Shown here piece after piece: positions 1 to 50,500 of a stretch of DNA of 64,000 bases. The stretch is from Botryllus schlosseri (Eukaryota), in contig CM119372.1 of the NCBI GenBank assembly GCA_051294905.1, positions 40,488,001 to 40,552,000 of the forward strand, read 5' to 3'. Under the pieces are notes generated by a model. It was not told the origin of the DNA. It searched no databases and saw nothing but the letters and a program-made list of their open reading frames with translations. Every line of letters begins with the position of its first letter. Within the stretch, counting starts at the first letter, position 1. A program made the position numbers and the translations under genes.

Positions 1-3000
1 ATGTAAGATGATTGTATTACGGGCGCTTAAGTAGTTCGTGAGTCGTATGTACATTCGCTGGACACGGCGCAATCTTCGGAAGCCAGCAATCGAACCAATC
101 TTATCTACAGACCCTGAACAAACTATCATTGGCCAGCTGATAATACCGTCTGTTTAGTTCCGTTCCTGCGTAATGTGAAATATCGAATCACGATGCAGGC
201 CAAAACTCACATATTATTTCTCAAAATTATCTAGCAAGCTCGGCTACTAGGAAGCCTGCTTATCAAATACGACTAATTGAAAAATCCGAGCGCACTCGGA
301 GCATTTTGTAATGCGGACTCACCTTAACACAATCAATATGTAAGATGATTGTATTACGGGCGCTTAAGTAGTTTGTGAGTCGTATGTACATTTGCTGGAC
401 ACGGCGCAATCTTCGAAAGCCAGCAATCGAACCAATCTTATCTACAGACCCTGAACAAACCATCATTGGCCAGCTGATAATACCGTCTGTTTCGGTCCGT
501 TCCTGCGTAATGTGAAATATCGAATCACGATGCAGGCCAAAACTCACATTTTATTTCTCAAAATTATCTAGCAAGCTCGGCTACAAGGAAGCCTGTTTAT
601 CAGATACGACTAATTGAAAAATCCGAGCGCACTCGGAGCATTTTGTAATGCGGACTCACCTTAACACAATCAATATGTAAGATGATTGTATTACGGGCGC
701 TTAAGTAGTTTGTGAGTCGTATGTACATTTGCTGGACACGGCGCAATCTTCGAAAGCCAGAAATCGATCCAATCTAATCTACAGAACCTGAACAAACCAT
801 CATTGGCCAGCTGATAATACCGTCTGTTTAGATCGGTTCTTGCGTAATGTGAAAAATCGAATCACGATGCAGGCCAAAACTAACATTTTATTTCTCAAAA
901 TTATCTAGCAAGCTCGGCTACTAGGAAGCCTGCTTATCAGATACGACTAATTGAAAAATCCGAGTGCACTCGGAGCATTTTGTAATGCGGACTCACCTTA
1001 ACACAATCAATATGTAAGATGATGGTATCACGGGCGCTTAAGTAGTTTGTGAGTCGTATGTACATTTGCTGGACACGGCGCAATCTTCGGAAGCCAGCAA
1101 TCGAACCAATCTTATCTACAGAACCTGAACAAACCATCATTGGCCAGCTGAAAACACCGTATTTTAGGTCGGTTCTTGCGTAATGTGAAATATCGAATCA
1201 CGATGCAGGCCAAAACTCACATATTATTTCTCAAAATTATCTAGCAAGCTCGGCCACTAGGAAGCCTGCTTATCAGATACGAATAATTGAAAAATCCGAG
1301 CGCACTCGGAACATTTTGTAATGCGGACTCACCTTAACACAATCAATATGTAAGATGATTGTATTACGGGCGCTTAAGTAGTTCGTGAGTCGTATGTACA
1401 TTCGCTGGACACGGCGCAATCTTCGGAAGCCAGCAATCGAACCAATCTTATCTACAGACCCTTAACAAACTATCATTGGCCAGCTGATAATACCGTCTGT
1501 TTAGTTCCGTTCCTGCGTAATGTGAAATATCGAATCACGATGCAGGCCAAAACTCACATATTATTTCTCAAATTTATCTAGCATGCTCGGCTCCTAGGAA
1601 GCCTGCTTATCAGGTACGACAAATTGAGAAATCCGAGCGCACCAGGAGCATTTTGTATTGCGGACTCACCTTAACACAATCAATATGTAAGGTGATTGTA
1701 TTACGGGCACTTGAGTAGTTCGTGAGTCGTATGTCCTTTTACTGGACACGGCGCAATCTTAGGAAGCCAGCAATCGAACCAATCTTATCTACAGACCCTG
1801 AACAAACCATCATTGGCCAGCTGATAACACCGTCTGTTTAGATCGGTTCTTGCGTAATGTGAAAAATCGAATCACGATGCAGGCCAAAACTCACATTTTA
1901 TTTCTCAAAATTATCTAGCAAGCTCGGCTACTAGGAAGCCTGTTTATCAGATACGACTAATTGAAAAATCCGAGCGCACTCGGAGCATTTTGTAATGCGG
2001 ACTCACCTTAACACAATCAATATGTAAGATGATGGTATCACGGGCGCTTAAGTAGTTTGTGAGTCGTATGTACATTTGCTGGACACGGCGCAATCTTCGG
2101 AAGCCAGCAATCGAACCAATCTTATCTACAGACCCTGAACAAACTATCATTGGCCAGCTGATAATACCGTCTGTTTCGGTCCGTTCCTGCGTAATGTGAA
2201 ATATCGAATCACGATGCAGGCCAAAACTCACATATAATTTCTCAAAATTATCTAGCATGCTCGGCTCCTAGGAAGCCTGCTTATCAGGTACGACAAATTG
2301 AAAAATCCGAGCGCACTCGGAGCATTTTGTAATGCGGACTCACCTTAACACAATCAATATGTAAGATGATTGTATTACGGGCGCTTGATTAGTTCGTGAG
2401 TCGTATGTACATTCGCTGGACACGGCGCAATCTTCGAAAGCCAGAAATCGATCCAATCTAATCTACAGAACCTGAACAAACCATCATTGGCCAGCTGATA
2501 ATACCGTCTGTTTAGATCGGTTCTTGCGTAATGTGAAAAATCGAATCACGATGCAGGCCAAAACTCACATATTATTTCTCAAAATTATCTAGCAAGCTCG
2601 GCTCCTAGGAAGCCTGCTTATCAGGTACGACAAATTGAAAAATCCGAGGGCACCAGGAGCATTTTGTAATGCGGACTCGCCTTAAGACAATCAATATGTA
2701 AGGTGATTGTATTACGGGCGCTTAAGTAGTTCGTGAGTCGTATGTACATTCGCTGGACACGGCGCAATCTTCGGAAGCCAGCAATCGAACCAATCTTATC
2801 TACAGACCCTGAACAAACTATCGTTGGCCAGCTGATAATACCGTCTGTTTAGTTCCGTTCCTGCGTAATGTAAAATATAGAATCACGATGCAGGCCAAAA
2901 CTCACAGATTATTTCTCAAAATTATCTAGCAAGCTCGGCTACTAGAAAGCCTGCTTATCAGATACGACTAATTGAAAAATCCGAGCGCACTCGGAGCATT

Positions 3001-4875
3001 TTGTAATGCGGACTCACCTTAAGACAATCAATATGTAAGGTGATTGTATTACGGGCGCTTGATTAGTTCTTGAGTCGTATGTCCTTTTACTGGACACGAC
3101 GCAATCTTCGGAAGCCAGCAATCGAACCAATCTTATCTACAGACCGTGAACAAACCATCATTGGCCAGCTGATAATACCGTCTGTTTATATCGGTTCTTG
3201 CGTAATGTGAAATATCGAATCACGATGCAGGCCAAAACTCACATATTATTTCTCAAAATTATCTAGCAAGCTCGGCTCCTAGGAAGCCTGCTTATCAGGT
3301 ACGACAAATTGAAAAATCCGAGGGCACAAGGAGCATTTTGTAATGCGGACTCGCCTTAAGACAATCAATATGTAAGGTGATTGTATTACGGGCGCTTAAG
3401 TAGTTCGTGAGTCGTATGTACATTCGCTGGACACGGCGCAATCTTCGAAAGCCAGCAATCGAACCAATCTTATCTAGAGTCCGTGAACAAACCATCATTG
3501 GCCAGCTGATAATACCGTCTGTTTAGGTCCGTTCCTGCGTAATGTGAAATATCGAATCACGATGCAGGCCAAAACTCACATATTATTTCTCAAAATTATC
3601 TAGCAAGCTCGGCTACTAGGAAGCCTGCTTATCAAATACGACTAATTGAAAAATCCGAGCGCACTCGGAGCATTTTGTAATGCGGACTCACCTTAACACA
3701 ATCAATATGTAGGATGATTGTATTACGGGCGCTCAAGTAGTTCGTGAGTCGTATGTACATTGGGTGGACACGGCGCAATCTTCGGAAGCCAGCAATCGAA
3801 CCAATCTTATCTACAGACCCTTAACAAACTATCATTGGCCAGCTGATAATACCGTCTGTTTAGTTCCGTTCCTGCGTAAGGTGAAATATCGAATCACGAT
3901 GCAGGCCAAAACTCACAGATTATTTCTCAAAATTATCTAGCAAGCTCGGCTCCTAGGAAGCCTGCTTATCAGGTACGACAAATTGAAAAATCCGAGGGCA
4001 CCAGGAGCATTTTGTAATGCGGACTCGTCTTAAGACAATCAATATGTAAGGTGATTGTATTACGGGCGCTTAAGTAGTTCGTGAGTCGTATGTACATTCG
4101 CTGGACACGGCGCAATCTTCGAAAGCCAGCAATCGAACCAATCTTATCTACAGAACCTGAACAAACCATCATTGGCCAGCTGAAAACACCGTATTTTAGG
4201 TCGGTTCTTGCGTAATGGTAAAAATCGAATCACGTTGCAGGCCAAAACTCACATATTATTTCTCAAAATTATCTAGCAAGCTCGGCTACTAGGAAGCCTG
4301 CATATCAGATACGAATAATTGAAAAATCCGAGCGCACTCGGAGCATTTTGTAATGCGGACTCACCTTAACACAATCAATATGTAAGGTGATTGTATTACG
4401 GGCGCTTGATTAGTACTTGAGTCGTATGTCCTTTTACTGGACACGGCGCAATCTTCGGAAGCCAGCAATCGAACCAATCTTATCTAGAGTCCGTGAACAA
4501 ACCTTCATTGGCCAGCTGATAATACCGTCTGTTTAGGTCCGTTCCTGCGTAATGTGAAATATCGAATCACGATGCAGGCCATAACTCACATATTATTTCT
4601 CAAAATTATCTAGCAAGCTCGGCTACTAGGAAGCCTGCTTATCAAATACGACTAATTGAAAAATCCGAGCGCACTCGGAGCATTTTTTAATGCGGACTCA
4701 CCTTAAAACAATCAATATGTAAGATGATTGCATTACGGGCGCTTAAGTAGTTCGTGAGTCGTATGTACATTCGCTGGACACGGCGCAATCTTCGGAAGCC
4801 AGCAATCGAACCAATCTTATCTACAGACCCTGAACAAACTATCATTGGCCAGCTGATAATACCGTCTGTTTAGAT
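1..4875 (+). repeat. Satellite DNA array, 337-bp monomer, forward orientation, ~14.5 copies (continues beyond the left edge)
   Basis: Head-to-tail recurrence of TCAGATACGACTAATTGAAAAATCCGAGCGCACTCGGAGCATTTTGTAATGCGG...CTAGCAAGCTCGGCTACTAGGAAGCCTGCTTA every 337 bp. Repeated ORF ends in the track are spaced by multiples of 337 (e.g. 263, 937; 3295, 3969), with occasional 336-bp units. Confidence 0.98.
4868..4875 (+). other. Left target-site duplication GTTTAGAT (8 bp; 9 bp if the C at 4876 is counted)
   Basis: Identical to 8618-8625; removing the insert and one copy restores an intact monomer. Confidence 0.92.
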
Positions 4876-4933
4876 CACTGAGCTATATAAACACTGGAGT
4901 GCGCTACTCGCGATATTTACGTTGTCACTAGAA

Positions 4934-5145
4934 ACAGTTGCATTGTGGGGGATAGGCTGGACGATTTAGTGCAGGAGCTTATGGAAAAACGTCCAGTTCT
5001 AAAATATATTTGATTCGTATTGGGTTTGTAGTATTTTATACGAATGGAGCTTTGAATGAATAATCATCGTAACATTCAGGATTTGTTTCAGCCCAATATC
5101 TCGTGTTTATATCTGTGTTATCGGTGTATTTCGACATGTCGAAGA
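4934..5145 (+). repeat. Left subterminal inverted repeat of the transposon (212-bp core; degenerate extension out to ~4915)
   Basis: ACAGTTGCATTGTGGGGGATAGGCTGGACG...TTTCGACATGTCGAAGA is the reverse complement of 8351-8562 with 5 mismatches by manual alignment. Confidence 0.95.
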
Positions 5146-6187
5146 TATAAGTGGTTTCGACTGTTCGTGGTAAAATAAGGTTGTCTATGTGTCATCGTAT
5201 GTATTTTTTTGTGGTTATATTCCTGATGTAGATTGCTTTACTCGTTGTATCCAGCATATTTTACGTGTACAGAAATAACCAAGCTGTCAAAAGATGTATA
5301 ATGCCAGTTCAGTTATCTTTCAGATATATGTTTCTATAGGAAGTAAAAGCATCTACGATTGTCAGCTTGAAGTTATTATCGGAGCGTGCCTCGGAATTAC
5401 CTATCCTGGATTCAAAATCTTCATACTTCAATGGAGCTGATGTGAATGCTATAACTGCCAGCTGTGAATATTGCTGATGGAGAAAATTCAGCATCATGGG
5501 ACATATCAAAAGGCACTGCTGAAATCAACTGAATGCCATTGTGGTTATTCTACGTATTTATTGGTTCAGCGTATTTAAATAAATCCAAAAAAGAGAAAGT
5601 AAAGATATGTCTGCTATGTGTGGCGATGGGGTAGTGATTTCTGTAGAAGTGACTGAATGAGTTCATTGAATGAGAGAAACAAGAAATGCATGGGTCCTTA
5701 TTCAGATGTAGCTAGAATTGCCCAATTCACAGTGAAATTGGGGCTATGTTGGTTGTAACAGCAATCTGTGCACTTTGGGAGTTCATAATAAATATTAATT
5801 TTATCGAATCAAAACGGCACAAGATACAATCTAAACGGCGTACATGTATTTTATCATAATTACACCTATAGCTACCCATATGCGTGTGTACATGAAGCTT
5901 GGCTCGTTTTGCACTTTCATGAAACCAGAAATTAGTTTGGATTCAAAACTAACTGGAGATGTGAACTGTGCTGCCTCGTCACACGAAATACCGCGCTGTA
6001 CTGTCTCGTACCAAAATGCTGAACTCTCGTTTTCAGAAACACCAGCTTCGGTTATGAGAAACGAATTTTTCTATTAAAATAACAACATAAAAAATAAAAC
6101 CAGAAATAAATTAATTGTTATCGACTTTACGTCGCCTTCGGCGTAATTAACGGTGATCTGAAAGTCAAATGTGGGATAAGTTAGGGC

Positions 6188-6338
6188 TTAATATCTGCGA
6201 ACGAGGTATAATAAACGAACCGATTCTGATCTTAGTTCCAACTTAATGGAATTTCTTCTCTTCTTACGCGGCACAGGCACAGTCACATTGAAGGCCACCC
6301 CACTACGGGTCCTACGACGACGACGTCGTTTTTGGGCA
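6188..6338 (-). CDS. Possible terminal exon of the THAP gene: basic, NLS-like peptide (AQKRRRRRRTRSGVAFNVTVPVPRKKRRNSIK...)
   Basis: Candidate acceptor TTCATTTATCTTGAACAG| at 6339, phase-compatible with the exon 2 donor; part of ORF 6188..6391(-). No homology evidence, and intervening exons cannot be excluded. Confidence 0.3.
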
Positions 6339-6456
6339 CTGTTCAAGATAAATGAACTAACATATGAGAAATTGTTCACTTGAAGACACATTGATCGACA
6401 TACCTTGATGTCACGACAACGTTTTTATACCAAAATGCGTATAAAATAGTAAAGAA

Positions 6457-6661
6457 AGTGTGTTAGCCGGTGTCTTCTACGGGTTTGAAGTATGTGTTGG
6501 CTAGACTTGCTCCCTTTTTTGTTTTCTTATTATCTGTAAAGATACCAAAAACTGTGAGTACAGAATTACAATAATGAAAATTCTACGGCATACGAAGAAA
6601 GTGGCCTCACCTCATTCAGTGGGTTAGCCGGTGTCTTCCGTGGGTTTGAAGTAAGAGTTGG
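6457..6661 (+). repeat. Pair of 44-bp imperfect direct repeats inside the transposon (6457-6500 and 6618-6661)
   Basis: AGTGTGTTAGCCGGTGTCTTCTACGGGTTTGAAGTATGTGTTGG vs AGTGGGTTAGCCGGTGTCTTCCGTGGGTTTGAAGTAAGAGTTGG; 38/44 identical, offset 161 bp. Confidence 0.85.
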
Positions 6662-7318
6662 GTATGTAAATATTCTCTCTGGCGACGCAGGGTTGGCTTT
6701 ACAGCTTAACGATGGTCGATTCCAAAACCTTTGAATGGAAAAGAAAACAGCCACGAGCAAGTATGTAATAAAGCGATAGTTACATCTGTGTACCAGAGCA
6801 CATATCATATAAATTATATATTGACAGTTAACCGCTAAAGGTATTGGACACTGAATGCAGCCTAATGATAAAAGGATGACAGATGTAACAAAATTGTTAT
6901 CCACCTTCTCAACGACAACATCGGAAAGCGGTAACGAATTGTCATTTTCTTTTTCAACGGAAGGGTGAAGGTAATTCAACAATTGAATCACCTTGAGCCT
7001 CATTATTGAACATATGGCAAAGGTGTCAATCGCCGTAACAGAACCAGCTTAATGAAATAACATTAATGCCCAATCTGTGCTAGTAGAGAATATATTTTAA
7101 TGGAAGCCTATAAAATACGCATGATCGAAAAAACACCTGAATATGTTCTATAGATAGAACCAACTCTTGGATTTTTTTTAAACATAAAGATTTGAGCTAT
7201 CCACATAATTTATATTATCATGACATTACGTCTCTGGAAACACAACTATAAGCCCTAGCAATGACCAGAGGTGGTCAGTTAAGAAGTACTTCTACTTAAA
7301 GTGGTTTTGCTCACTCAC

Positions 7319-7465
7319 GTCCTTAAACGAATTCTCCCGCCAACACGGTAAATATCACTTTCTGAAAAATGATCAGAACAGACGACCGACGATCTTGCTG
7401 GCTCCCAGTCTTTTCTTCTAATACATTCTATCCATCTTTCTTTCAGGGAATCATTGGTAGGAAAG
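7319..7465 (-). CDS. THAP zinc-finger protein, coding exon 2 (R-FPTNDSLKERWIECIRRKDWEPARSSVVCSDHFSESDIYRVGGRIRLR-T)
   Basis: Acceptor TTCTCTACAACACAG| at 7466, phase-compatible with exon 1 (CG|C = Arg). Supplies the FP, W and CxxHF motifs of the THAP C2CH fold. The 3' end is either a donor AC|GTGAGT (GT at 7318-7317) or an in-frame TGA at 7317-7315. Absent from the ORF track. Confidence 0.88.
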
Positions 7466-8199
7466 CTGTGTTGTAGAGAACATTGTATCAGTTCACAAGT
7501 AATTCTATGATACGAAGCACACCAAATTGACCATTCTTTGTTATGAACGATGATAAAAGTAGCAGGAACATATGTGAAATTATCTTGTTTGATTTAGATA
7601 TATCTGTTACTTTCTACCCCTGAAGGATAAACTATTAGGTAACCTTTTAAATCCAAAGCCAAAGGTTAACCTAAAAAAAACATCTTACAAGACAAATCGA
7701 ACGTCTCGCACGCACAAAGCTATAATGAACTCGACCACGGAATTAGCAATTTGAACTTTAGTGTGAGCATCTGGCACCAGAAATATAGAGTTATTACTCA
7801 ACTATGCTGGACAAAACCGTGTGGCCCTCAATTATACCTTTCCTTCTAGTCCTACCTCCAACCTTCACGACAATTTTAAGCAAGGATTGAGTACTAAGCT
7901 AGTTATTGGCTGAACTGCCCATACAGAATACAAACAGTGACCTGGCTGGTCATGCTATTACAGGTATACTGATGAACTGACATGGTGCTGAGACTGCTGA
8001 TATAGTCTGCTCTGATCATACCAACATCATTATACTTGTGACAAAATGTTCTGGTATAATGACACTTTAACATGGCCTATTCATTAATGCTGTGGCTTAT
8101 CTGGACATTGATTAACTGTGATGGTCAGGAAATATTAAAAATAGAAACTGATTCTTCAAAGATAGTCTTGCTGCCCTGCATATTCTGCCATTCACTCAC
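7466..8199 (-). other. Spliceosomal GT-AG intron 1 of the THAP gene (734 bp)
   Basis: GTGAGT donor and pyrimidine-rich CAG acceptor; splicing creates the FHRFP motif typical of THAP domains. Confidence 0.82.
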
Positions 8200-8360
8200 C
8201 GGTGAAATGTTCTTGGATGCCGACGCTTTACCAAAGACTCTTCATCGCTACTACCATCGCTATTACTTCTCATATATGACTCCGTGGATATCTTTTTCTG
8301 CCTTTTACTGCACCAACAGGCGCAACAAACGCTACCACCAAAACGAGATGTCTTCGACAT
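8200..8360 (-). CDS. THAP zinc-finger protein, coding exon 1 (MSKTSRFGGSVCCACWCSKRQKK...KRRHPRTFH-R)
   Basis: ATG at 8360. N-terminal CxxxxC (CCACWC) and TFHR motif. Ends at a consensus donor CG|GTGAGT (GT at 8199-8198), phase 2. Corresponds to the 3' part of ORF 8196..8393(-). Confidence 0.85.
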
Positions 8361-8562
8361 GTCGAAATACACAGATAACACAGATATAAACACGAGATAT
8401 TGGGCTGAAACAAATCCTGAATGTTACGATGATTATTCATTCAAAGCTCCATTCGTATAAAATACTACAAACCCAATACGAATCAAATATATTTTAAAAC
8501 TGGACGTTTTTCCATAAGCGCCTGTACTAAGTCGTCCAGCCTATCCCCCACAATGCAACTGT
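8351..8562 (-). repeat. Right subterminal inverted repeat of the transposon (212-bp core; degenerate extension out to ~8582); contains the THAP start codon and its upstream region
   Basis: TCTTCGACATGTCGAAATACAC...CCTATCCCCCACAATGCAACTGT is the reverse complement of 4934-5145. Confidence 0.95.
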
Positions 8563-8617
8563 AACATGGTGACAACGCAAATTTGCTTAGCCGGAGATGG
8601 CAGTAGTTCGGGGCTTG

Positions 8618-8625
8618 GTTTAGAT
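8618..8625 (+). other. Right target-site duplication GTTTAGAT
   Basis: Identical to 4868-4875 and followed directly by the satellite continuation CCGTTCCTGCGTAATG. Confidence 0.92.
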
Positions 8626-11600
8626 CCGTTCCTGCGTAATGTGAAATATCGAATCACGATGCAAGCCAAAACTCACATATTATTTCTCAAATTTATCTAG
8701 CATGCTCGGCTCCTAGGAAGCCTGCTTATCAGGTACGACAAATTGAGAAATCCGAGCGCACCAGGAGCATTTTGTATTGCGGACTCACCTTAACACAATC
8801 AATATGTAAGGTGATTGTATTACGGGCACTTGAGTAGTTCGTGAGTCGTATGTCCTTTTACTGGACACGGCGCAATCTTAGGAAGCCAGCAATCGAACCA
8901 ATCTTATCTACAGACCCTGAACAAACCATCATTGGCCAGCTGATAACACCGTCTGTTTAGATCGGTTCTTGCGTAATGTGAAAAATCGAATCACGATGCA
9001 GGCCAAAACTCACATTTTATTTCTCAAAATTATCTAGCAAGCTCGGCTACTAGGAAGCCTGTTTATCAGATACGACTAATTGAAAAATCCGAGCGCACTC
9101 GGAGCATTTTGTAATGCGGACTCACCTTAACACAATCAATATGTAAGATGATGGTATCACGGGCGCTTAAGTAGTTTGTGAGTCGTATGTACATTTGCTG
9201 GACACGGCGCAATCTTCGGAAGCCAGCAATCGAACCAATCTTATCTACAGATCCTGAACAAACTATCATTGGCCAGCTGATAATACCGTCTGTTTCGGTC
9301 CGTTCCTGCGTAATGTGAAATATCGAATCACGATGCAGGCCAAAACTCACATATAATTTCACAAAATTATCTAGCATGCTCGGCTCCTAGGAAGCCTGCT
9401 TATCAGGTACGACAAATTGAAAAATCCGAGCGCACTCGGAGCATTTTGTAATGCGGACTCACCTTAACACAATCAATATGTAAGATGATTGTATTACGGG
9501 CGCTTGATTAGTTCGTGAGTCGTATGTACATTCGCTGGACACGGCGCAATCTTCGAAAGCCAGAAATCGATCCAATCTAATCTACAGAACCTGAACAAAC
9601 CATCATTGGCCAGCTGATAATACCGTCTGTTTAGATCGGTTCTTGCGTAATGTGAAAAATCGAATCACGATGCAGGCCAAAACTCACATATTATTTCTCA
9701 AAATTATCTAGCAAGCTCGGCTCCTAGGAAGCCTGCTTATCAGGTACGACAAATTGAAAAATCCGAGGGCACCAGGAGCATTTTGTAATGCGGACTCGCC
9801 TTAAGACAATCAATATGTAAGGTGATTGTATTACGGGCGCTTAAGTAGTTCGTGAGTCGTATGTACATTCGCTGGACACGGCGCAATCTTCGGAAGCCAG
9901 CAATCGAACCAATCTCATCTACAGACCCTGAACAAACTATCGTTGGCCAGCTGATAATACCGTCTGTTTAGTTCCGTTCCTGCGTAATGTAAAATATAGA
10001 ATCACGATGCAGGCCAAAACTCACAGATTATTTCTCAAAATTATCTAGCAAGCTCGGCTACTAGGAAGCCTGCTTATCAGATACGACTAATTGAAAAATC
10101 CGAGCGCACTCGGAGCATTTTGTAATGCGGACTCACCTTAAGACAATCAATATGTAAGGTGATTGTATTACGGGCGCTTGATTAGTTCTTGAGTCGTATG
10201 TCCTTTTACTGGACACGACGCAATCTTCGGAAGCCAGCAATCGAACCAATCTTATCTACAGACCGTGAACAAACCATCATTGGCCAGCTGATAATACCGT
10301 CTGTTTATATCGGTTCTTGCGTAATGTGAAATATCGAATCACGATGCAGGCCAAAACTCACATATTATTTCTCAAAATTATCTAGCAAGCTCGGCTCCTA
10401 GGAAGCCTGCTTATCAGGTACGACAAATTGAAAAATCCGAGGGCACAAGGAGCATTTTGTAATGCGGACTCGCCTTAAGACAATCAATATGTAAGGTGAT
10501 TGTATTACGGGCGCTTAAGTAGTTCGTGAGTCGTATGTACATTCGCTGGACACGGCGCAATCTTCGAAAGCCAGCAATCGAACCAATCTTATCTACAGAA
10601 CCTGAACAAACCATCATTGGCCAGCTGAAAACACCGTATTTTAGGTCGGTTCTTGCGTAATGTTAAAAATCGAATTACGTTGCAGGCCAAAACTCACATA
10701 TTATTTCTCAAAATTATCTAGCAAGCTCGGCTACTAGGAAGCCTGCTTATCAGATACGACTAATTGAAAAATCCGAGCGCACTCGGAGCATTTTGTAATG
10801 CGGACTCACCTTAACACAATCAATATGTAAGGTGATTGTATTACGGGCGCTTGATTAGTACTTGAGTCGTATGTCCTTTTACTGGACACGGCGCAATCTT
10901 CGGAAGCCAGCAATCGAACCAATCTTATCTAGAGTCCGTGAACAAACCATCATTGGCCAGCTGATAATACCGTCTGTTTAGGTCCGTTCCTGCGTAATGT
11001 GAAATATCGAATCACGATGCAGGCCAAAACTCACATATTATTTCTCAAAATTATCTAGCAAGCTCGGCTACTAGGAAGCCTGCTTATCAAATACGACTAA
11101 TTGAAAAATCCGAGCGCACTCGGAGCATTTTGTAATGCGGACTCACCTTAACACAATCAATATGTAGGATGATTGTATTACGGGCGCTTAAGTAGTTCGT
11201 GAGTCGTATGTCCTTTTACTGGACACGGCGCAATCTTCGGAAGCTAGCAATCGAACCAATCTTATCTACAGACCCTGAACAAACCATCATTGGCCAGCTG
11301 ATAATACCGTCTGTTTAGATCGGTTCTTGCGTAATGTGAAAAATCGAATCACGATGCAGGCCAAAACTCACATTTTATTTCTCAAAATTATCTAGCAAGC
11401 TCGGAAACTAGGAAGCCTGCTTATCAGATACGACTAATTGAAAAATCCGAGCGCACTCGAAGCATTTTGTAATGCGGACTCACCTTAACACAATCAATAT
11501 GTAAGATGATTGTATTACGGGCGCTTAAGTAGTTTGTGAGTCGTATGTACATTCGCTGGACACGGCGCAATCTTCGGAAGCCAGCAATCGAACCAATCTT

Positions 11601-14600
11601 ATCTACAGACCCTGAACAAACTATCATTGGCCAGCTGATAATACCGTCTGTTTAGGTCCGTTCCTGCGTAATGTGAAATATCGAATCACGATGCAGGCCA
11701 AAACTCACATATAATTTCTCAAAATTATCTAGCATGCTCGGCTCCTAGGAAGCCTGCTTATCAGGTACGACAAATTGAAAAATCCGAGCGCACCAGGAGC
11801 ATTTTGTAATGCGAACTCACCTTAACACAATCAATATGTAAGGTGATTGTATTACGGGCGCTTAAGTAGTTCGTGAGTCGTATGTACACTCGCTGGACAC
11901 GGCGCAATCTTCTAAAGCCAGCAATCGATCCAATCTTATCTACAGACCCTGAACAAACTATCATTGGCCAGCTGATAATACCGTCTGTTTAGGTCCGTTC
12001 TTGCGTAATGTGAAAAATCTAATCACGATGCAGGCCAAAACTCACATATTATTTCTCAATATTATCTAGCAAGCTCGGCTACTAGGAAGCCTGCTTCTCA
12101 GATACGACTAATTGAAAAATCCGAGCGCACTCGGAGCATTTTGTAATGCGGACTCACCTTAACACAATCAATATGTAAGGTGATTGTATTACGGGCGCTT
12201 GATTAGTACTTGAGTCGTATGTCCTTTTACTGGACACGGCGCAATCTTCGGAAGCCAGCAATCGAACCAATCTTATCTAGAGTCCGTGAACAAACCTTCA
12301 TTGGCCCGCTGATAATACCGTCTGTTTAGGTCCGTTCCTGCGTAATGTGAAATATCGAATCACGATGCAGGCCAAAACTCACATATTATTTCTCAAAATT
12401 ATCTAGCATGCTCGGCTCCTAGGAAGCCTGCTTATCAGGTACGACAAATTGAAAAATCCGAGCGCACCAGGAGCATTTTGTATTGCGGACTCACCTTAAC
12501 ACAATCAATATGTAAGGTGATTGTATTACGGGCACTTGAGTAGTTCGTGAGTCGTATGTCCTTTTACTGGACACGGCGCAATCTTCGAAAGCCAGCAATC
12601 GAACCAATCTTATCTACAGACCCTGAACAAACTATCATTGGCCAGCTGATAATACCGTCTGTTTCGGTCCGTTCCTGCGTAATGTGAAATATCGAATCAC
12701 GATGCAGGCCAAAACTCACATTTTATTTCTCAAAATTATCTAGCAAGCTCGGCTACTAGGAAGCCTGTTTATCAGATACGACTAATTGAAAAATCCGAGC
12801 GCACTCGGAGCATTTTGTAATGCGGACTCACCTTAACACAATCAATATGTAAGATGATTGTATTACGGGCGCTTAAGTAGTTTGTGAGTCGTATGTACAT
12901 TTGCTGGACACGGCGCAATCTTCGGAAGCCAGCAATCGAACCAATCTTATCTACAGACCCTGAACAAACTATCATTGGCCAGCTGATAATACCGTCTGTT
13001 TAGATCGGTTCTTGCGTAATGTGAAAAATCGAATCACGATGCAGGCCAAAACTCACATATTATTTCTCAAAATTATCTAGCAAGCTCGGCTCCTAGGAAG
13101 CCTGCTTATCAGGTACGACAAATTGAAAAATCCGAGCGCACTCGGAGCATTTTGTAATGCGGACTCACCTTAAGACAATCAATATGTAAGGTGATTGTAT
13201 TACGGGCGCTTAAGTAGTTCGTGAGTCGTATGTACATTCGCTGGACACGGCGCAATCTTCGGTAGCCAGCAATCGAACCAATCTTATCTACAGACCCTGA
13301 ACAAACCATCATTGGCCAGCTGATAATACCGTCTGTTTCGGTCCGTTCCTGCGTAATGTGAAATATCGAATCACGATGCAGGCCAAAACTCACATATTAT
13401 TTCTCAAAATTATCTAGCATGCTCGGCTCCTAGGAAGCCTGCTTATCAGGTACGACAAATTGAAAAATCCGAGCGCACCAGGAGCATTTTGTATTGCGGA
13501 CTCACCTTAACACAATCAATATGTAAGGTGATTGTATTACGGGCACTTGAGTAGTTCGTGAGTCGTATGTCCTTTTACTGGACACGGCGCAATCTTCGAA
13601 AGCCAGCAATCGAACCAATCTTATCTACAGACCCTGAACAAACTATCATTGGCCAGCTGATAATACCGTCTGTTTAGATCGGTTCTTGCGTAATGTGAAA
13701 AATCGAATCACGATGCAGGCCAAAACTCACATATTATTTCTCAAAATTATCTAGCAAGCTCGGCTCCTAGGAAGCCTGCTTATCAGGTATGACAAATTGA
13801 AAAATCCGAATGCACCAGGAGCATTTTGTAATGCGGACTCGCCTTAAGACAATCAATATGTAAGGTGATTGTATTACGGGCGCTTAAGTAGTTCGTGAGT
13901 CGTATGTACATTCGCTGGACACGGCGCAATCTTCGGTAGCCAGCAATCGAACCAATCTTATCTACAGACCCTGAACAAACTATCATTGGCCAGCTGATAA
14001 TACCGTATGTTTAGTTCCGTTCCTGCGTAATGTGAAATATCGAATCACGATGCAGGCCAAAGCTCACAGATTATTTCTCAAAATTATCTAGCAAGCTCGG
14101 CTACTAGGAAGCCTGCTTATCAGATACGACTGATTGAAAAATCCGAGCGCACTCGGAGCATTTTGTAATGCGGACTCACCTTAACACAATCAATATGTAA
14201 GATGATTGTATTACGGGCGCTTAAGTAGTTTGTGAGTCGTATGTACATTCGCTGGACACGGCGCAATCTTCGAAAGCCAGCAATCGAACCAATCTTATCT
14301 ACAGACCCTGAACAAACTATCATTGGCCAGCTGATAATACCGTCTGTTTCGGTCCGTTCCTGCGTAATGTGAAATATCGAATCACGATGCAGGCCAAAAC
14401 TCACATTTTATTTCTCAAAATTATCTAGCAAGCTCGGCTACTAGGAAGCCTGTTTATCAGATACGACTAATTGAAAAATCCGAGCGCACTCGGAGCATTT
14501 TGTAATGCGGACTCACCTTAACACAATCAATATGTAAGATGATTGTATTACGGGCGCTTAAGTAGTTTGTGAGTCGTATGTACATTTGCTGGACACGGCG

Positions 14601-17600
14601 CAATCTTCGGAAGCCAGCAATCGAACCAATCTTATCTACAGACCCTGAACAAACCATCATTGGCCAGCTGATAATACCGTCTGTTTAGATCGGTTCTTGC
14701 GTAATGTGAAAAATCGAATCACGATGCAGGCCAAAACTCACATATAATTTCTCAAAATTATCTAGCATGCTCGGCTCCTAGGAAGCCTGCTTATCAGGTA
14801 CGACAAAGTGAAAAATCCGAGCGCACCAGGAGCATTTTGTAATGCGAACTCACCTTAACACAATCAATATGTAAGGTGATTGTATTACGGGCGCTTAAGT
14901 AGTTCGTGAGTCGTATGTACACTCGCTGGACACGGCGCAATCTTCTAAAGCCAGCAATCGATCCAATCTTATCTACAGACCCTGAACAAACTATCATTGG
15001 CCAGCTGATAATACCGTCTGTTTAGGTCCGTTCTTGCGTAATGTGAAAAATCTAATCACGATGCAGGCCAAAACTCACATATTATTTCTCAATATTATCT
15101 AGCAAGCTCGGCTACTAGGAAGCCTGCTTCTCAGATACGACTAATTGAAAAATCCGAGCGCACTCGGAGCATTTTGTAATGCGGACTCACCTTAACACAA
15201 TCAATATGTAAGGTGATTGTATTACGGGCGCTTGATTAGTACTTGAGTCGTATGTCCTTTTACTGGACACGGCGCAATCTTCGGAAGCCAGCAATCGAAC
15301 CAATCTTATCTAGAGTCCGTGAACAAACCTTCATTGGCCCGCTGATAATACCGTCTGTTTAGGTCCGTTCCTGCGTAATGTGAAATATCGAATCACGATG
15401 CAGGCCAAAACTCACATATTATTTCTCAAAATTATCTAGCATGCTCGGCTCCTAGGAAGCCTGCTTATCAGGTACGACAAATTGAAAAATCCGAGCGCAC
15501 CAGGAGCATTTTGTATTGCGGACTCACCTTAACACAATCAATATGTAAGGTGATTGTATTACGGGCACTTGAGTAGTTCGTGAGTCGTATGTCCTTTTAC
15601 TGGACACGGCGCAATCTTCGAAAGCCAGCAATCGAACCAATCTTATCTACAGACCCTGAACAAACTATCATTGGCCAGCTGATAATACCGTCTGTTTCGG
15701 TCCGTTCCTGCGTAATGTGAAATATCGAATCACGATGCAGGCCAAAACTCACATTTTATTTCTCAAAATTATCTATCAAGCTCGGCTACTAGGAAGCCTG
15801 TTTATCAGATACGACTAATTGAAAAATCCGAGCGCACTCGGAGCATTTTGTAATGCGGACTCACCTTAACACAATCAATATGTAAGATGATTGTATTACG
15901 GGCGCTTAAGTAGTTTGTGAGTCGTATGTACATTTGCTGGACACGGCGCAATCTTCGGAAGCCAGCAATCGAACCAATCTTATCTACAGACCCTGAACAA
16001 ACTATCATTGGCCAGCTGATAATACCGTCTTTTTCGGTCCGTTCCTGCGTAATGTGAAATATCGAATCACGATGCAGGCCAAAACTCACATATAATTTCT
16101 CAAAATTATCTAGCATGCTCGGCTCCTAGGAAGCCTGCTTATCAGGTACGACAAATTGAAAAATCCGAGCGCACTCGGAGCATTTTGTAATGCGGACTCA
16201 CCTTAACACAATCAATATGTAAGATGATTGTATTACGGGCGCTTGATTAGTTCGTGAGTCGTATGTACATTCGCTGGACACGGCGCAATCTTCGAAAGCC
16301 AGAAATCGATCCAATCTAATCTACAGAACCTGAACAAACCATCATTGGCCAGCTGATAATACCGTCTGTTTAGATCGGTTCTTGCGTAATGTGAAAAATC
16401 GAATCACGATGCAGGCCAAAACTCACATATTATTTCTCAAAATTATCTAGCAAGCTCGGCTCCTAGGAAGCCTGCTTATCAGGTACGACAAATTGAAAAA
16501 TCCGAATGCACCAGGAGCATTTTGTAATGCGGACTCGCCTTAAGACAATCAATATGTAAGGTGATTGTATTACGGGCGCTTAAGTAGTTCGTGAGTCGTA
16601 TGTACATTCGCTGGACACGGCGCAATCTTCGGAAGCCAGCAATCGAACCAATCTTATCTACAGACCCTGAACAAACTATCATTGGCCAGCTGATAATACC
16701 GTCTGTTTAGTTCCGTTCCTGCGTAATGTGAAATATCGAATCACGATGCAGGCCAAAGCTCACAGATTATTTCTCAAAATTATCTAGCAAGCTCGGCTAC
16801 TAGGAAGCCTGCTTATCAGATACGACTGATTGAAAAATCCGAGCGCACTCGGAGCATTTTGTAATGCGGACTCACCTTAACACAATCAATATGTAAGATG
16901 ATTGTATTACGGGCGCTTAAGTAGTTTGTGAGTCGTATGTACATTCGCTGGACACGGCGCAATCTTCGAAAGCCAGCAATCGAACCAATCTTATCTACAG
17001 ACCCTGAACAAACTATCATTGGCCAGCTGATAATACCGTCTGTTTCGGTCCGTTCCTGCGTAATGTGAAATATCGAATCACGATGCAGGCCAAAACTCAC
17101 ATTTTATTTCTCAAAATTATCTAGCAAGCTCGGCTACTAGGAAGCCTGCTTATCAGATACGACTGATTGAAAAATCCGAGCGCACTCGGAGCATTTTGTA
17201 ATGCGGACTCACCTTAACACAATCAATATGTAAGATGATTGTATTACGGGCGCTTAAGTAGTTTGTGAGTCGTATGTACATTTGCTGGACACGGCGCAAT
17301 CTTCGGAAGCCAGCAATCGAACCAATCTTATCTACAGACCCTGAACAAACCATCATTGGCCAGCTGATAATACCGTCTGTTTAGATCGGTTCTTGCGTAA
17401 TGTGAAAAATCGAATCACGATGCAGGCCAAAACTCACATATTATATCTCAAAATTATCTAGCAAGCTCGGCTCCTAGGAAGCCTGCTTATCAGGTACGAC
17501 AAATTGAAAAATCAGAATGCACCAGGAGCATTTTGTAATGCGGACTCGCCTTAAGACAATCAATATGTAAGGTGATTGTATTACGGGCGCTTAAGTAGTT

Positions 17601-20600
17601 CGTGAGTCGTATGTACATTCGCTAGACACGGCGCAATCTTCGGAAGCCAGCAATCGAACCAATCTTATCTACAGACCCTGAACAAACTATCATTGGCCAG
17701 CTGATAATACCGTCTGTTTAGTTCCGTTCCTGCGTAATGTGAAATATCGAATCACGATGCAGGCCAAAACTCACAGATTATTTCTCAAAATTATCTAGCA
17801 AGCTCGGCTACTAGGAAGCCTGCTTATCAGATACGACTGATTGAAAAATCCGAGCGCACTCGGAGCATTTTGTAATGCGGACTCACCTTAACACAATCAA
17901 TATGTAAGGTGATTGTATTACAGGCGCTTGATTAGTACTTGAGTCGTATGTCCTTTTACTGGACACGGCGCAATCTTCGGAAGCCAGCAATCGAACCAAT
18001 CTTATCTAGAGTCCGTGAACAAACCTTCATTGGCCCGCGGATAATACTGTCTGTTTAGGTCCGTTCCTGCGTAATGTGAAATATCGAATCACGATGCAGG
18101 CCATAACTCACATATTATTTCTCAAAATTATCTAGCAAGCTCGGCTACTAGGAAGCCTGCTTATCAAATACGACTAATTGAAAAATCCGAGCGCACTCGG
18201 AGCATTTTGTAATGCGGACTCACCTTAACACAATCAATATGTAGGATGATTGCATTACGGGCGCTTAAGTAGTTCGTGAGTCGTATGTACATTCGCTGGA
18301 CACGGCGCAATCTTCGAAAGCCAGCAATCGAACCAATCTTATCTACAGACCCTGAACAAACTATCATTGGCCAGCTGATAATACCGTCTGTTTCGGTCCG
18401 TTCCTGCGTAATGTGAAATATCGAATCACGATGAAGGCCAAAACTCACATTTTATTTCTCAAAATTATCTAGCAAGCTCGGCTACTAGGAAGCCTGTTTA
18501 TCAGATACGACTAATTGAAAAATCCGAGCGCACTCGGAGCATTTTGTAATGCGGACTCACCTTAACACAATCAATATGTAAGATGATTGTATTACGGGCG
18601 CTTAAGTAGTTTGTGAGTCGTATGTACATTTGCTGGACACGGCGCAATCTTCGGAAGCCAGCAATCGAACCAATCTTATCTACAGACCCTGAACAAACTA
18701 TCATTGGCCAGCTGATAATACCGTCTGTTTCGGTCCGTTCCTGCGTAATGTGAAATATCGAATCACGATGCAGGCCAAAACTCACATATAATTTCTCAAA
18801 ATTATCTAGCATGCTCGGCTCCTAGGAAGCCTGCTTATCAGGTACGACAAATTGAAAAATCCGAGCGCACTCGGAGCATTTTGTAATGCGGACTCACCTT
18901 AAGACAATCAATATGTAAGGTGATTGTATTACGGGCACTTGATTAGTTCTTGAGTCGTATGTCCTTTTACTGGACACGACGCAATCTTCGGAAGCCAGCA
19001 ATCGAACCAATCTTATCTACAGACCGTGAACAAACTATCATTGGCCAGCTGATAATACCGTCTGTTTAGTTCCGTTCCTGCGTAATGTGAAATATCGAAT
19101 CACGATGCAGGCCAAAACTCACATATTATTTCTCAAAATTATCTAGCAAGCTCGGCTACTAGGAAGCCTGCTTTTCAGATACGACTAATTGAAAAATCCG
19201 AGCGCACTCGGAGCATTTTGTAATGCGGACTCACCTTAAGACAATCAATATGTAAGGTGATTGTATTACGGGCACTTGATTAGTTCTTGAGTCGTATGTC
19301 CTTTTACTGGACACGACGCAATCTTCGGAAGCCAGCAATCGAACCAATCTTATCTACAGACCGTGAACAAACCATCATTGGCCAGCTGATAATACCGTCT
19401 GTTTAGATCGGTTCTTGCGTAATGTGAAATATCGAATCACGATGCTTGCCAAAACTCACATATTATTTCTCAAAATTATCTAGCAAGCTCGGCTCCAGGA
19501 AGCCTGCTTATCAGGTACGACAAATTGAAAAATCCGAGGGCACCAGGAGCATTTTGTAATGCGGACTCGCCTTAAGACAATCAATATGTAAGGTGATTGT
19601 ATTACGGGCGCTTAAGTAGTTCGTGAGTCGTATGTACATTCGCTGGACACGGCGCAATCTTCGAAAGCCAGCAATCGAACCAAATTTATCTACAGAACCT
19701 GAACAAACCATCATTGGCCAGCTGAAAACACCGTATTTTAAGTCGGTTCTTGCGTAATGTTAAAAATCGAATCACGTTGCAGGCCAAAACTCACATAATA
19801 TTTCTCAAAATTATCTAGCAAGCTCGGCTACTAGGAAGCCTGTTTATCAGATACGACAAATTGAAAAATCCGAGCGCACTCGGAGCATTTTGTAATGCGG
19901 ACTCACCTTAACACAATCAATATGTAAGATGATTGTATTACGGGCGCTTGATTAGTTCGTGAGTCGTATGTACATTCGCTGGACACGGCGCAATCTTCGA
20001 AAGCCAGAAATCGATCCAATCTAATCTACAGAACCTGAACAAACCATCATTGGCCAGCTGATAATACCGTCTGTTTAGATCGGTTCTTGCGTAATGTGAA
20101 ATATCGAATCACGATGCAGGCCAAAACTCACATATTATGTCTCAAAATTATCTAGCAAGCTCAGCCACTAGGAAGCCTGCTTATCAGATACGAATAATTG
20201 AAAAATCCGAGCGCACTCGGAGCATTTTGTAATGCGGACTCACCTTAACACAATCAATATGTAAGATGATTGTATTACGGGCGCTTAAGTAGTTCGTGAG
20301 TCGTATGTACATTCGCTGGACACGGCGCAATCGTCGGAAGCCAGCAATCGAACCAATCTTATCTACAGACCCTGAACAAACTATCATTGGCCAGCTGATA
20401 ATACCGTCTGTTTAGTTCCGTTCCTGCGTAATGTGAAATATCGAATCACGATGCAGGCCAAAACTCACATATTATTTCTCAAAATTATCTAGCAAGCTCG
20501 GCTACTAGGAAGCCTGCTTTTCAGATACGACTAATTGAAAAATCCGAGCGCACTCGGAGCATTTTGTAATGCGGACTCACCTTAAGACAATCAATATGTA

Positions 20601-23600
20601 AGGTGATTGTATTACGGGCACTTGATTAGTTCTTGAGTCGTATGTCCTTTTACTGGACACGACGCAATCTTCGGAAGCCAGCAATCGAACCAATCTTATC
20701 TACAGACCGTGAACAAACCATCATTGGCCAGCTGATAATACCGTCTGTTTAGATCGGTTCTTGCGTAATGTGAAATATCGAATCACGATGCAGGCCAAAA
20801 CTCACATATTATTTCTCAAAATTATCTAGCAAGCTCGGCTCCAGGAAGCCTGCTTATCAGGTACGACAAATTGAAAAATCCGAGGGCACCAGGAGCATTT
20901 TGTAATGCGGACTCGCCTTAAGACAATCAATATGTAAGGTGATTGTATTACGGGCGCTTAAGTAGTTCGTGAGTCGTATGTACATTCGCTGGACACGGCG
21001 CAATCTTCGAAAGCCAGCAATCGAACCAAACTTATCTACAGAACCTGAACAAACCATCATTGGCCAGCTGAAAACACCGTATTTTAAGTCGGTTCTTGCG
21101 TAATGTTAAAAATCGAATCACGTTGCAGGCCAAAACTCACATATTATTTCTCAAAATTATCTAGCAAGCTCGGCTACTAGGAAGCCTGCTTATCAGATAC
21201 GAATAATTGAAAAATCCGAGCGCACTCGGAGCATTTTGTAATGCGGACTCACCTTAACACAATCAATATGTAAGGTGATTGTATTACGGGCGCTTGATTA
21301 GTACTTGAGTCGTATGTCCTTTTACTGGACACGGCGCAATCTTCGGAAGCCAGCAATCGAACCAATCTTATCTAGAGTCCGTGAACAAACCATCATTGGC
21401 CAGCTGATAATACCGTCTGTTTAGGTCCGTTCCTGCGTAATGTGAAATATCGAATCACGATGCAGGCCAAAACTCACATATTATTTCTCAAAATTATCTA
21501 GCAAGCTCGGCTACTAGGAAGCCTGCTTATCAAATACGACTAATTGAAAAATCCGAGCGCACTCGGAGCATTTTGTAATGCGGACTCACCTTAACACAAT
21601 CAATATGTAGGATGATTGCATTACGGGCGCTTAAGTAGTTCGTGAGTCGTATGTCCTTTTACTGGACACGGCGCAATCTTCGGAAGCCAGCAATCGAACC
21701 AATCTTATCTAGAGTCCGTGAACAAACCTTCATTGGCCCGCGGATAATACTGTCTGTTTAGGTCCGTTCCTGCGTAATGTGAAATATCGAATCACGATGC
21801 AGGCCATAACTCACATATTATTTCTCAAAATTATCTAGCAAGCTCGGCTACTAGGAAGCCTGCTTATCAAATACGACTAATTGAAAAATCCGAGCGCACT
21901 CGGAGCATTTTGTAATGCGGACTCACCTTAACACAATCAATATGTAGGATGATTGCATTACGGGCGCTTAAGTAGTTCGTGAGTCGTATGTACATTCGCT
22001 GGACACGGCGCAATCTTCGAAAGCCAGCAATCGAACCAATCTTATCTACAGACCCTGAACAAACTATCATTGGCCAGCTGATAATACCGTCTGTTTCGGT
22101 CCGTTCCTGCGTAATGTGAAATATCGAATCACGATGAAGGCCAAAACTCACATTTTATTTCTCAAAATTATCTAGCAAGCTCGGCTACTAGGAAGCCTGT
22201 TTATCAGATACGACTAATTGAAAAATCCGAGCGCACTCGGAGCATTTTGTAATGCGGACTCACCTTAACACAATCAATATGTAAGATGATTGTATTACGG
22301 GCGCTTAAGTAGTTTGTGAGTCGTATGTACATTTGCTGGACACGGCGCAATCTTCGGAAGCCAGCAATCGAACCAATCTTATCTACAGACCCTGAACAAA
22401 CTATCATTGGCCAGCTGATAATACCGTCTGTTTCGGTCCGTTCCTGCGTAATGTGAAATATCGAATCACGATGCAGGCCAAAACTCACATATAATTTCTC
22501 AAAATTATCTAGCATGCTCGGCTCCTAGGAAGCCTGCTTATCAGGTACGACAAATTGAAAAATCCGAGCGCACTCGGAGCATTTTGTAATGCGGACTCAC
22601 CTTAAGACAATCAATATGTAAGGTGATTGTATTACGGGCACTTGATTAGTTCTTGAGTCGTATGTCCTTTTACTGGACACGACGCAATCTTCGGAAGCCA
22701 GCAATCGAACCAATCTTATCTACAGACCGTGAACAAACTATCATTGGCCAGCTGATAATACCGTCTGTTTAGTTCCGTTCCTGCGTAATGTGAAATATCG
22801 AATCACGATGCAGGCCAAAACTCACATATTATTTCTCAAAATTATCTAGCAAGCTCGGCTACTAGGAAGCCTGCTTTTCAGATACGACTAATTGAAAAAT
22901 CCGAGCGCACTCGGAGCATTTTGTAATGCGGACTCACCTTAAGACAATCAATATGTAAGGTGATTGTATTACGGGCACTTGATTAGTTCTTGAGTCGTAT
23001 GTCCTTTTACTGGACACGACGCAATCTTCGGAAGCCAGCAATCGAACCAATCTTATCTACAGACCGTGAACAAACCATCATTGGCCAGCTGATAATACCG
23101 TCTGTTTAGATCGGTTCTTGCGTAATGTGAAATATCGAATCACGATGCTTGCCAAAACTCACATATTATTTCTCAAAATTATCTAGCAAGCTCGGCTCCA
23201 GGAAGCCTGCTTATCAGGTACGACAAATTGTAAAATCCGAGGGCACCAGGAGCATTTTGTAATGCGGACTCGCCTTAAGACAATCAATATGTAAGGTGAT
23301 TGTATTACGGGCGCTTAAGTAGTTCGTGAGTCGTATGTACATTCGCTGGACACGGCGCAATCTTCGGAAGCCAGCAATCGAACCAATCTTATCTACAGAC
23401 CCTGAACAAACTATCATTGGCCAGCTGATAATACCGTCTGTTTCGGTCCGTTCCTGCGTAATGTGAAATATCGAATCACGATGAAGGCCAAAACTCACAT
23501 TTTATTTCTCAAAATTATCTAGCAAGCTCGGCTACTAGGAAGCCTGTTTATCAGATACGACTAATTGAAAAATCCGAGCGCACTCGGAGCATTTTGTAAT

Positions 23601-50494: not shown

Positions 50495-50500
50495 GTAGCT
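50486..50500. other. Satellite orientation-switch (inversion) junction with 6-bp filler GTAGCT at 50495-50500
   Basis: The forward monomer ends ...CTCGGCTACTAGGAAGCCTG (50494), then GTAGCT, then the reverse-complement monomer begins TAGTAGCCGAGCTTGCTAG (50501). The repeated ORFs flip from - to + strand here. Confidence 0.97.

Follow-up and report, generated by a model that had tools for sequence, protein, structure and literature searches.

Two THAP-like exons lie on the minus strand inside a satellite array of Botryllus schlosseri, and they raise the question of whether they form a gene in their own right or are what is left of a larger one. The earlier note on this DNA had left two options standing: a deletion derivative of a P-type element that lacks a catalytic domain, or a mobile THAP-only gene with a repressor-like or cargo role. 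We analysed the whole 64,000-nt stretch (hereafter the window), and our reading, to which we assign a probability of roughly 70%, is that the exons would be the opening 103 codons of a transposase gene of THAP9/P type carried by a 3,742-bp non-autonomous P-superfamily derivative, likely a dead remnant.

A truncated THAP domain encoded by two exons

The THAP homology and the repeat beside it are laid out as follows.

8200..8360 (161 nt), minus strand: THAP exon 1, carrying C-x4-C plus a clade-specific serine/acidic insert, RS[DN]SxGSxDEES, in the loop; Cys-Trp replaces Tyr-Gly before the second cysteine
7466..8199 (734 nt), minus strand: intron 1, phase 2, GT-AG, at a position conserved in related loci
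7319..7465 (147 nt), minus strand: THAP exon 2, truncated; P, W and C-S-D-H-F present, final AVP-type motif absent
7266..7297, plus strand: start (~32 bp) of an unrelated, very high-copy dispersed repeat; the THAP homology stops 20 bp away

The minus-strand join of 8360-8200 to 7465-7319 across a phase-2 GT-AG intron, as originally proposed, was confirmed; it runs in frame and without a stop for 102 codons plus 2 nt, and the last residue quoted in that proposal requires base 7318, with TGA coming next. The letters directly after exon 2, GTGAGT, can be read either as this in-frame TGA or as a splice donor. We found that the exon-2 frame matches Pfam THAP above cut-off (PF05485, E 5.6e-9; 37.1 bits, the cut-off being 23.9; positions 20-68 of the 87 in the profile), which answers the domain search that had been suggested as a check. 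Both halves of the C2CH zinc site are complete (C-x4-C in exon 1, C-x2-H in exon 2), and the invariant core residues P, W and F all lie in exon 2. Because the join is in frame, the Pfam THAP match lies above cut-off and exon 1 has protein matches (see below), the two-exon gene model is real as homology.

The earlier statement that all conserved THAP residues are present stood for the zinc ligands and for P, W and F, but not for the C-terminal AVP-type proline. This fourth invariant residue (P78 of THAP1, within an AVPTIF-type motif) is missing after exon 2, and no AVP-type motif occurs downstream of it in any of the six frames of 4876-7318; the proline motif is found in 14/14 homologous THAP domains with a complete core, and in the 8 loci inspected at this point exon 2 of the relatives continues for 16 codons (48 nt) past the stop of the window copy, through the AVP-type motif to a phase-0 donor. 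A second departure lies in exon 1, where the glycine before the second cysteine, kept in 20/24 aligned homologues and replaced by Trp in none, is Trp in the window copy. The best exon-1 match, P0001 (96% identical), retains Tyr-Gly where the window copy has Cys-Trp, so that the two copies differ by two residues, both just before the second zinc-binding cysteine. According to the accessible text of PMC3479173, the THAP domain has four invariant residues, of which the last is the proline of the C-terminal motif, and changing any of them abolishes DNA binding; the same text reports THAP1 to be destabilised when the glycine preceding the second cysteine is replaced. Because the AVP-type proline is missing and Gly is changed to Trp, the 103-aa peptide is predicted to be incapable of binding DNA.

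Evidence from RNA comes from 4 of 24 runs (contigs of X2 and X15, reads of X22 and X24), with ~6% of X24 and ~3% of X22 read and with 16 of 450 contig pieces and 24 of 217 loose ends covered. The 8200/7465 junction is not among the joints listed in these 4 runs, at a raw-read depth there (~2 and 0.3) that is too shallow to be informative. Some X2 and X15 contigs run unspliced across the intron-1 donor, and one X2 contig crosses the acceptor unspliced; these contigs may be DNA, pre-mRNA or antisense RNA, and contigs are no evidence that a spliced form is absent. One X2 contig tracks exon 2 to 7318 and then continues with 52 letters that fit nowhere in the element, a length close to the 48 nt missing from exon 2, which is only suggestive of a truncation in the window copy. 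An X15 contig departs from the element at 7293 with 230 further letters. The dispersed repeat is marked by summed contig depth, which is ~31,000 and ~18,000 at 7280 and ~100 and ~60 in the next bin; contigs over 7266-7297 have varying flanks before 7265-7266 and a common continuation behind 7297, and the repeat may resemble hAT-type ends. A deletion that removed the end of exon 2 together with most of this high-copy repeat might explain both the X15 exit at 7293 and the X2 exit at 7318.

An element with unequal ends inserted into satellite DNA

As had been described, the gene sits within a satellite array: the window is almost entirely 337-bp satellite around an insert. What had been overlooked is that the exons belong to a unique 3,742-bp insert (4876-8617) that begins with CA, ends with TG and is bounded by recognisable ends and a target duplication.

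1..4875, no strand assigned: 337-bp satellite array left of the element
4868..4875 (8 bp), no strand assigned: left target-site duplication GTTTAGAT, satellite-derived, with an identical 8-mer at 8618-8625
4876..4908, plus strand: left terminus (3' end with respect to the THAP gene), with the clade-type motif CACTGA-N11-ACTGGA
4934..5148, plus strand: left arm of a 215-bp inner inverted repeat, 97% complementary to 8348-8562 (6 mismatches)
8348..8562, minus strand: right arm of the inner inverted repeat, which includes the first codons of the THAP gene
8563..8617, minus strand: right terminus (5' end), which begins with CA and differs from the left terminus and from the terminal repeat of relatives
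8618..8625 (8 bp), no strand assigned: right target-site duplication, the same 8-mer as on the left
8618..50494, no strand assigned: 337-bp satellite array on the right-hand side, continuing the phase of the left part

With the element and one copy of the duplication removed, the site agrees with another part of the array over 1400 nt, gap-free and at 99.1% identity, so no satellite was lost on insertion and the insertion is likely recent, as judged from flanks that are still ~99% identical to other array units. A 9-bp duplication is formally possible; we prefer 8 bp because relatives begin with CACTGA and because an X15 contig begins at 4876. The motif CACTGA-N9-12-ACTGGA stands at the ends of related elements in 7/26 loci, and in the window it occurs once, exactly at 4876; it appears in 1/100 shuffles, a count that is not an independent test since the pattern was drawn from the left end and the relatives.

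The same motif is absent from the right end, which shares only CA and scattered bases with the left; the outer 55 bp are unlike between the two ends. L006 is the sole relative for which both ends are available; its ends match over 41 bp and its inner repeat is 18 bp long, in contrast to the unequal ends, 215-bp inner repeat and foreign interior of the window element. A clean 8-bp duplication beside a non-matching right end suggests that the transposase can use unequal ends. Both inner-repeat arms end just past an ATG, and the right ATG starts the THAP gene; the right arm is thus positioned as the likely promoter and 5' leader of that gene, the promoter role following from position. An X15 contig with the left terminus carries the four right-arm bases at 4965, 4971, 4976 and 4999; this hints at exchange that keeps the two arms similar, or at a recent change in the window copy.

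Several observations concern neighbouring or related sequence. The first 33 bp of the element recur in X2 and X15 contigs that diverge behind 4908 into a different sequence which they have in common; this points to sister elements sharing the terminus. The satellite has a higher-order structure in which 1.4-kb blocks recur several kb apart at 97-99% identity, and a two-unit test stretch differs at ~42/674 bases from the median array position. At 50494-50501 the orientation of the satellite flips abruptly: the two arrays meet head to head, separated by no more than ~6 unrelated bases, and this creates a very long imperfect palindrome.

Relatives of the THAP exons among P-type transposases

Used as a query against 1.84 billion proteins, exon 1 recovered 48 at E<=0.001, which have the serine/acidic insert of the first loop in common, and THAP was found in 9/14 of the longer matches scanned; exon 2 alone gave no candidate among longer proteins. 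A profile built from the matches was run on proteins of 374-2000 residues and found 7 at E<=1e-8, one of which is named DNA transposase THAP9. Whether such matches are P-type transposases had been raised as a check, and 4 of these 7 full-length proteins are, with P-element Pfam domains. The clade profile also matches the Drosophila P transposase structure 6p5a at 1e-18.

In metagenomes we confirmed 26 loci among 243 candidate stretches, comprising complete single-gene elements and internally deleted ones (L006-L008, L010 and L011), and in these 26 every match beyond THAP falls in one order and on one strand. The same phase-2 intron, after the F-H-x codons, interrupts L008, L009, L013, L015 and L024 (L013 and L024 being the same here), and L001 and L002 are without intron 1. 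P0001 and variants among the reads indicate that further alleles or copies exist. Among viral contigs, nothing related to the THAP alignment was found and neither terminus had an exact match; prokaryote genomes gave no relative, and Rfam gave 0 matches at E<=1. Judged by family hallmarks, Kolobok and Mutator were rejected, given a duplication other than TTAA, ends of the form CA...TG and full-length matches that are P-type.

Comparison with THAP9-like P transposons of invertebrates (Nymphon striatum KAG1655031.1, which is P0056; Sanderia malayensis P0057 and P0059; L001, L009 and L024) brings out the loop insert (41-56% identity over the two exons), intron 1 and the terminal motif at one end as shared features, whereas theirs is a single gene that also encodes the coil, RNase H, GTP-binding and C-terminal domains. 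Set against what defines the P superfamily, the window element has the 8-bp duplication and P-type-derived sequence; the RNase H, GTP-binding and C-terminal domains of autonomous members are absent.

Two kinds of relative lack part of this gene. L006:131-2859 (and likewise L007, L008, L010 and L011) has THAP, coil and the start of HTH fused to the C-terminal domain, and this fused family is a more plausible candidate than the window element for a repressor of the KP kind. L002:92-970 is an intronless open frame with THAP and coil and without a catalytic domain, likely the transcript of a THAP-only gene of the clade.

A search for transposase remnants in the rest of the element

The earlier note had seen no long ORF and no RNase-H/DDE motif in the remaining ~2.1 kb, and our searches bear this out for 5146-7318, with tblastn, profiles and Pfam in agreement. 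With 13 homologues against the element by tblastn, only the two THAP exons exceed noise, and whole-protein profiles find nothing beyond those exons. Domain profiles scored below the best of 30 shuffles in each case: -3.3 vs. 0.7 for coil/HTH, -5.7 vs. -0.9 for RNase H/GTP-binding, and -5.3 vs. 2.9 for the C-terminal domain (15 sequences). As positive controls, the coil/HTH and RNase H/GTP-binding profiles found their domains, and the three control loci held no C-terminal domain. In Pfam searches of 68 ORFs and of six read-through frames, THAP alone exceeded the cut-off. Remnants of the coiled coil, RNase H, GTP-binding and C-terminal domains are thus found on neither strand.

A few candidates were set aside along the way. 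Below-cut-off Pfam matches on 5/68 ORFs were dismissed; the C-x2-C of the plus-strand ORF 5340-5474 was rejected as a C-terminal domain (profile comparison probability 0.1%); and interior pieces that looked PA14- or CS-like by eye have no Pfam support.

Transcription and splicing of the interior

We found that the interior is itself transcribed and spliced, a point missing from the earlier note on these 2.1 kb.

5324..5600, plus strand: transcribed exon with no recognisable protein; AATAAA at 5578; putative end point
5617..6727, minus strand: spliced transcript of non-transposase DNA, with exons 6727 (tentative)-6611, 6533-6404, 6338-6221 and 6157-about 5617
6457..6664, no strand assigned: 47-bp direct repeat, copies at 6457-6503 and 6618-6664, 161 bp apart and 85% identical, one in each of two neighbouring exons

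The interior introns (77, 65 and 63 nt) are all GT-AG, and each is spliced in three or four of the 4 runs; X24 reads and X15 contigs contain all three joints (6533/6611, 6338/6404 and 6157/6221), X22 and X2 contain two each, and the tentative exon start at 6727 is placed at an AG. In the single-cell run X22, with sense set by spliced reads, second mates are plus-strand over 5238-5615, and minus-strand RNA covers ~6000-6500. In 16 X24 reads the AG at 5322-5323 is joined to sequence that the element does not contain, so another locus or copy is the source of some of the plus-strand RNA. A further 13 X24 reads leave the element at 5914 into another sequence, possibly marking a polymorphic insertion.

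Across two proven introns the spliced interior holds a frame open for 86 codons, a length reached by 316/2000 shuffles; if one more intron of 60 nt, picked post hoc, is assumed, the frame is open for 147 codons (5/2000 shuffles), and the interior may on this account hold a relic of a real gene. The assumed intron (6071-6130, GT-AG) is one that X15 and X22 reads retain, and three listed indel variants fall inside it. The frame has no early ATG and has in-frame stops upstream. A protein search with the interior exon 6221-6340 gave nothing at E<=10, and the ESM Atlas gave nothing for 5834-6070; its match of 6569-7048 to PF26215 (0.84, low recognition) was treated as noise. We infer that the interior is unrelated, non-transposase DNA.

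Discussion

We propose that an ancestral single-gene P element would have lost everything past the THAP core, perhaps through a deletion that also took most of the small repeat inserted there; unrelated DNA would then have filled the interior, likely by template switching in gap repair, as for Pack-TIRs. The element has no means of making a transposase of its own; it would have retained usable ends and been cut and pasted into the satellite in trans by a transposase from elsewhere, with a THAP9-type enzyme of another locus binding near the ends and leaving the 8-bp duplication. The deletion-derivative option of the earlier note, a P-type element without its catalytic domain, is supported by homology, by the domain searches and by the ends. 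Cutting against a dead remnant is the fact that exons 1 and 2 are still in frame with their splice signals intact; moreover, given the perfect donor GTGAGT after exon 2, a transcript could splice onward. The unequal ends, in which the element departs from L006, and the 147-codon frame obtained with the assumed intron also weigh against our reading.

That the exons make a functional THAP-only gene, a KP-like repressor that occupies the transposase binding sites near the element ends, strikes us as very unlikely. It can claim in-frame exons around a canonical intron, all four zinc ligands, and the company of catalytic-domain-free THAP-plus-coil proteins in the clade (P0017, P0055 and L002), and the available text of PMC7776569 indicates that small non-autonomous P elements often encode repressors, the 207-aa KP among them. 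Nonetheless, the invariant proline motif is missing, the conserved Gly has become Trp, there is no coiled coil, and the 8200/7465 junction is not among the listed joints of the 4 runs, in which X2 and X15 contigs are unspliced at this intron. The same features, namely a domain cut before its proline motif, two changes and no dimerisation coil, tell against the mobile THAP-only option of the earlier note, whether as repressor or as cargo; the complete THAP domain and dimerisation region in an open frame that characterise KP-type elements were not found here.

A splice onward from the 7318 donor, by which exon 2 would join accessory or captured coding exons of the interior to make the chimeric protein of a mobile family, seems to us decidedly unlikely. 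The donor itself, the three interior introns spliced in RNA and the open frame of 86 codons, or 147 with the assumed intron 6130-6071, speak for it; yet no joint from 7319 to anywhere in the element is listed, the frame has in-frame stops upstream and no early ATG, its 86 codons are matched in 316/2000 shuffles, its 147 (5/2000) depend on a post hoc intron retained in X15 and X22 reads, and no homologue or family was found for the interior. We also regard as unlikely a decayed two-gene P member, in which each inverted repeat would start a gene and the plus-strand gene would encode the C-terminal domain. Here the two inner-repeat arms, both ending just after an ATG, and RNA on facing strands are suggestive, but the mirror ATG at 5136 in the left arm meets a stop at codon 5, the C-terminal profile reaches only -5.3 where shuffles reach up to 2.9 (the profile being built from the single-gene clade), the plus-strand ORF has a profile comparison probability of 0.1%, and the 26 related loci have one order and one strand beyond THAP. 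Doubtful as well is a mobile family that would combine a P-type vector with unequal outer ends, twin promoter-bearing inner repeats, two facing spliced transcripts and a multi-exon gene in place of the transposase, in a layout related to that of two-gene P elements. If the interior were a maintained gene, the element would be a P-type counterpart of Pack-MULEs.

Our preferred reading, a dead P-type derivative, is an ordinary one, as such elements are known from flies and zebrafish. KP includes a leucine zipper and is a protein that dimerises and represses, whereas the window THAP is cut before its last motif, lacks a coil and adjoins an interior that is not transposase. Otherwise the window element resembles Drosophila KP and zebrafish Pdre derivatives in being non-autonomous, in its 8-bp duplication and inverted repeats and in keeping a 5' part of the transposase, and the accessible texts of PMC7776569 and PMC10983969 describe 8-bp duplications, terminal and inner repeats and deleted copies for fly and zebrafish P elements. 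With animal Pack-TIRs (PMC8277862, accessible text) it shares transposon ends around transcribed, spliced non-transposase DNA; the same source has P elements capturing DNA by gap-fill template switching and proposes likewise for Pack-TIRs. Unlike in Pack-TIRs, capture of the element's interior from a parent locus is conjectural.

The element further points to an invertebrate THAP9 clade whose zinc-finger loop carries a conserved serine/acidic insert. A literature search found no paper on the element or on the loop insert, a weak result since most subscription papers fall outside the texts covered. The insert RS[DN]SxGSxDEES (8200-8360 in the window, and P0002-P0059) is conserved among jellyfish, arthropods and a herring, and may be a cluster of phosphorylation sites.
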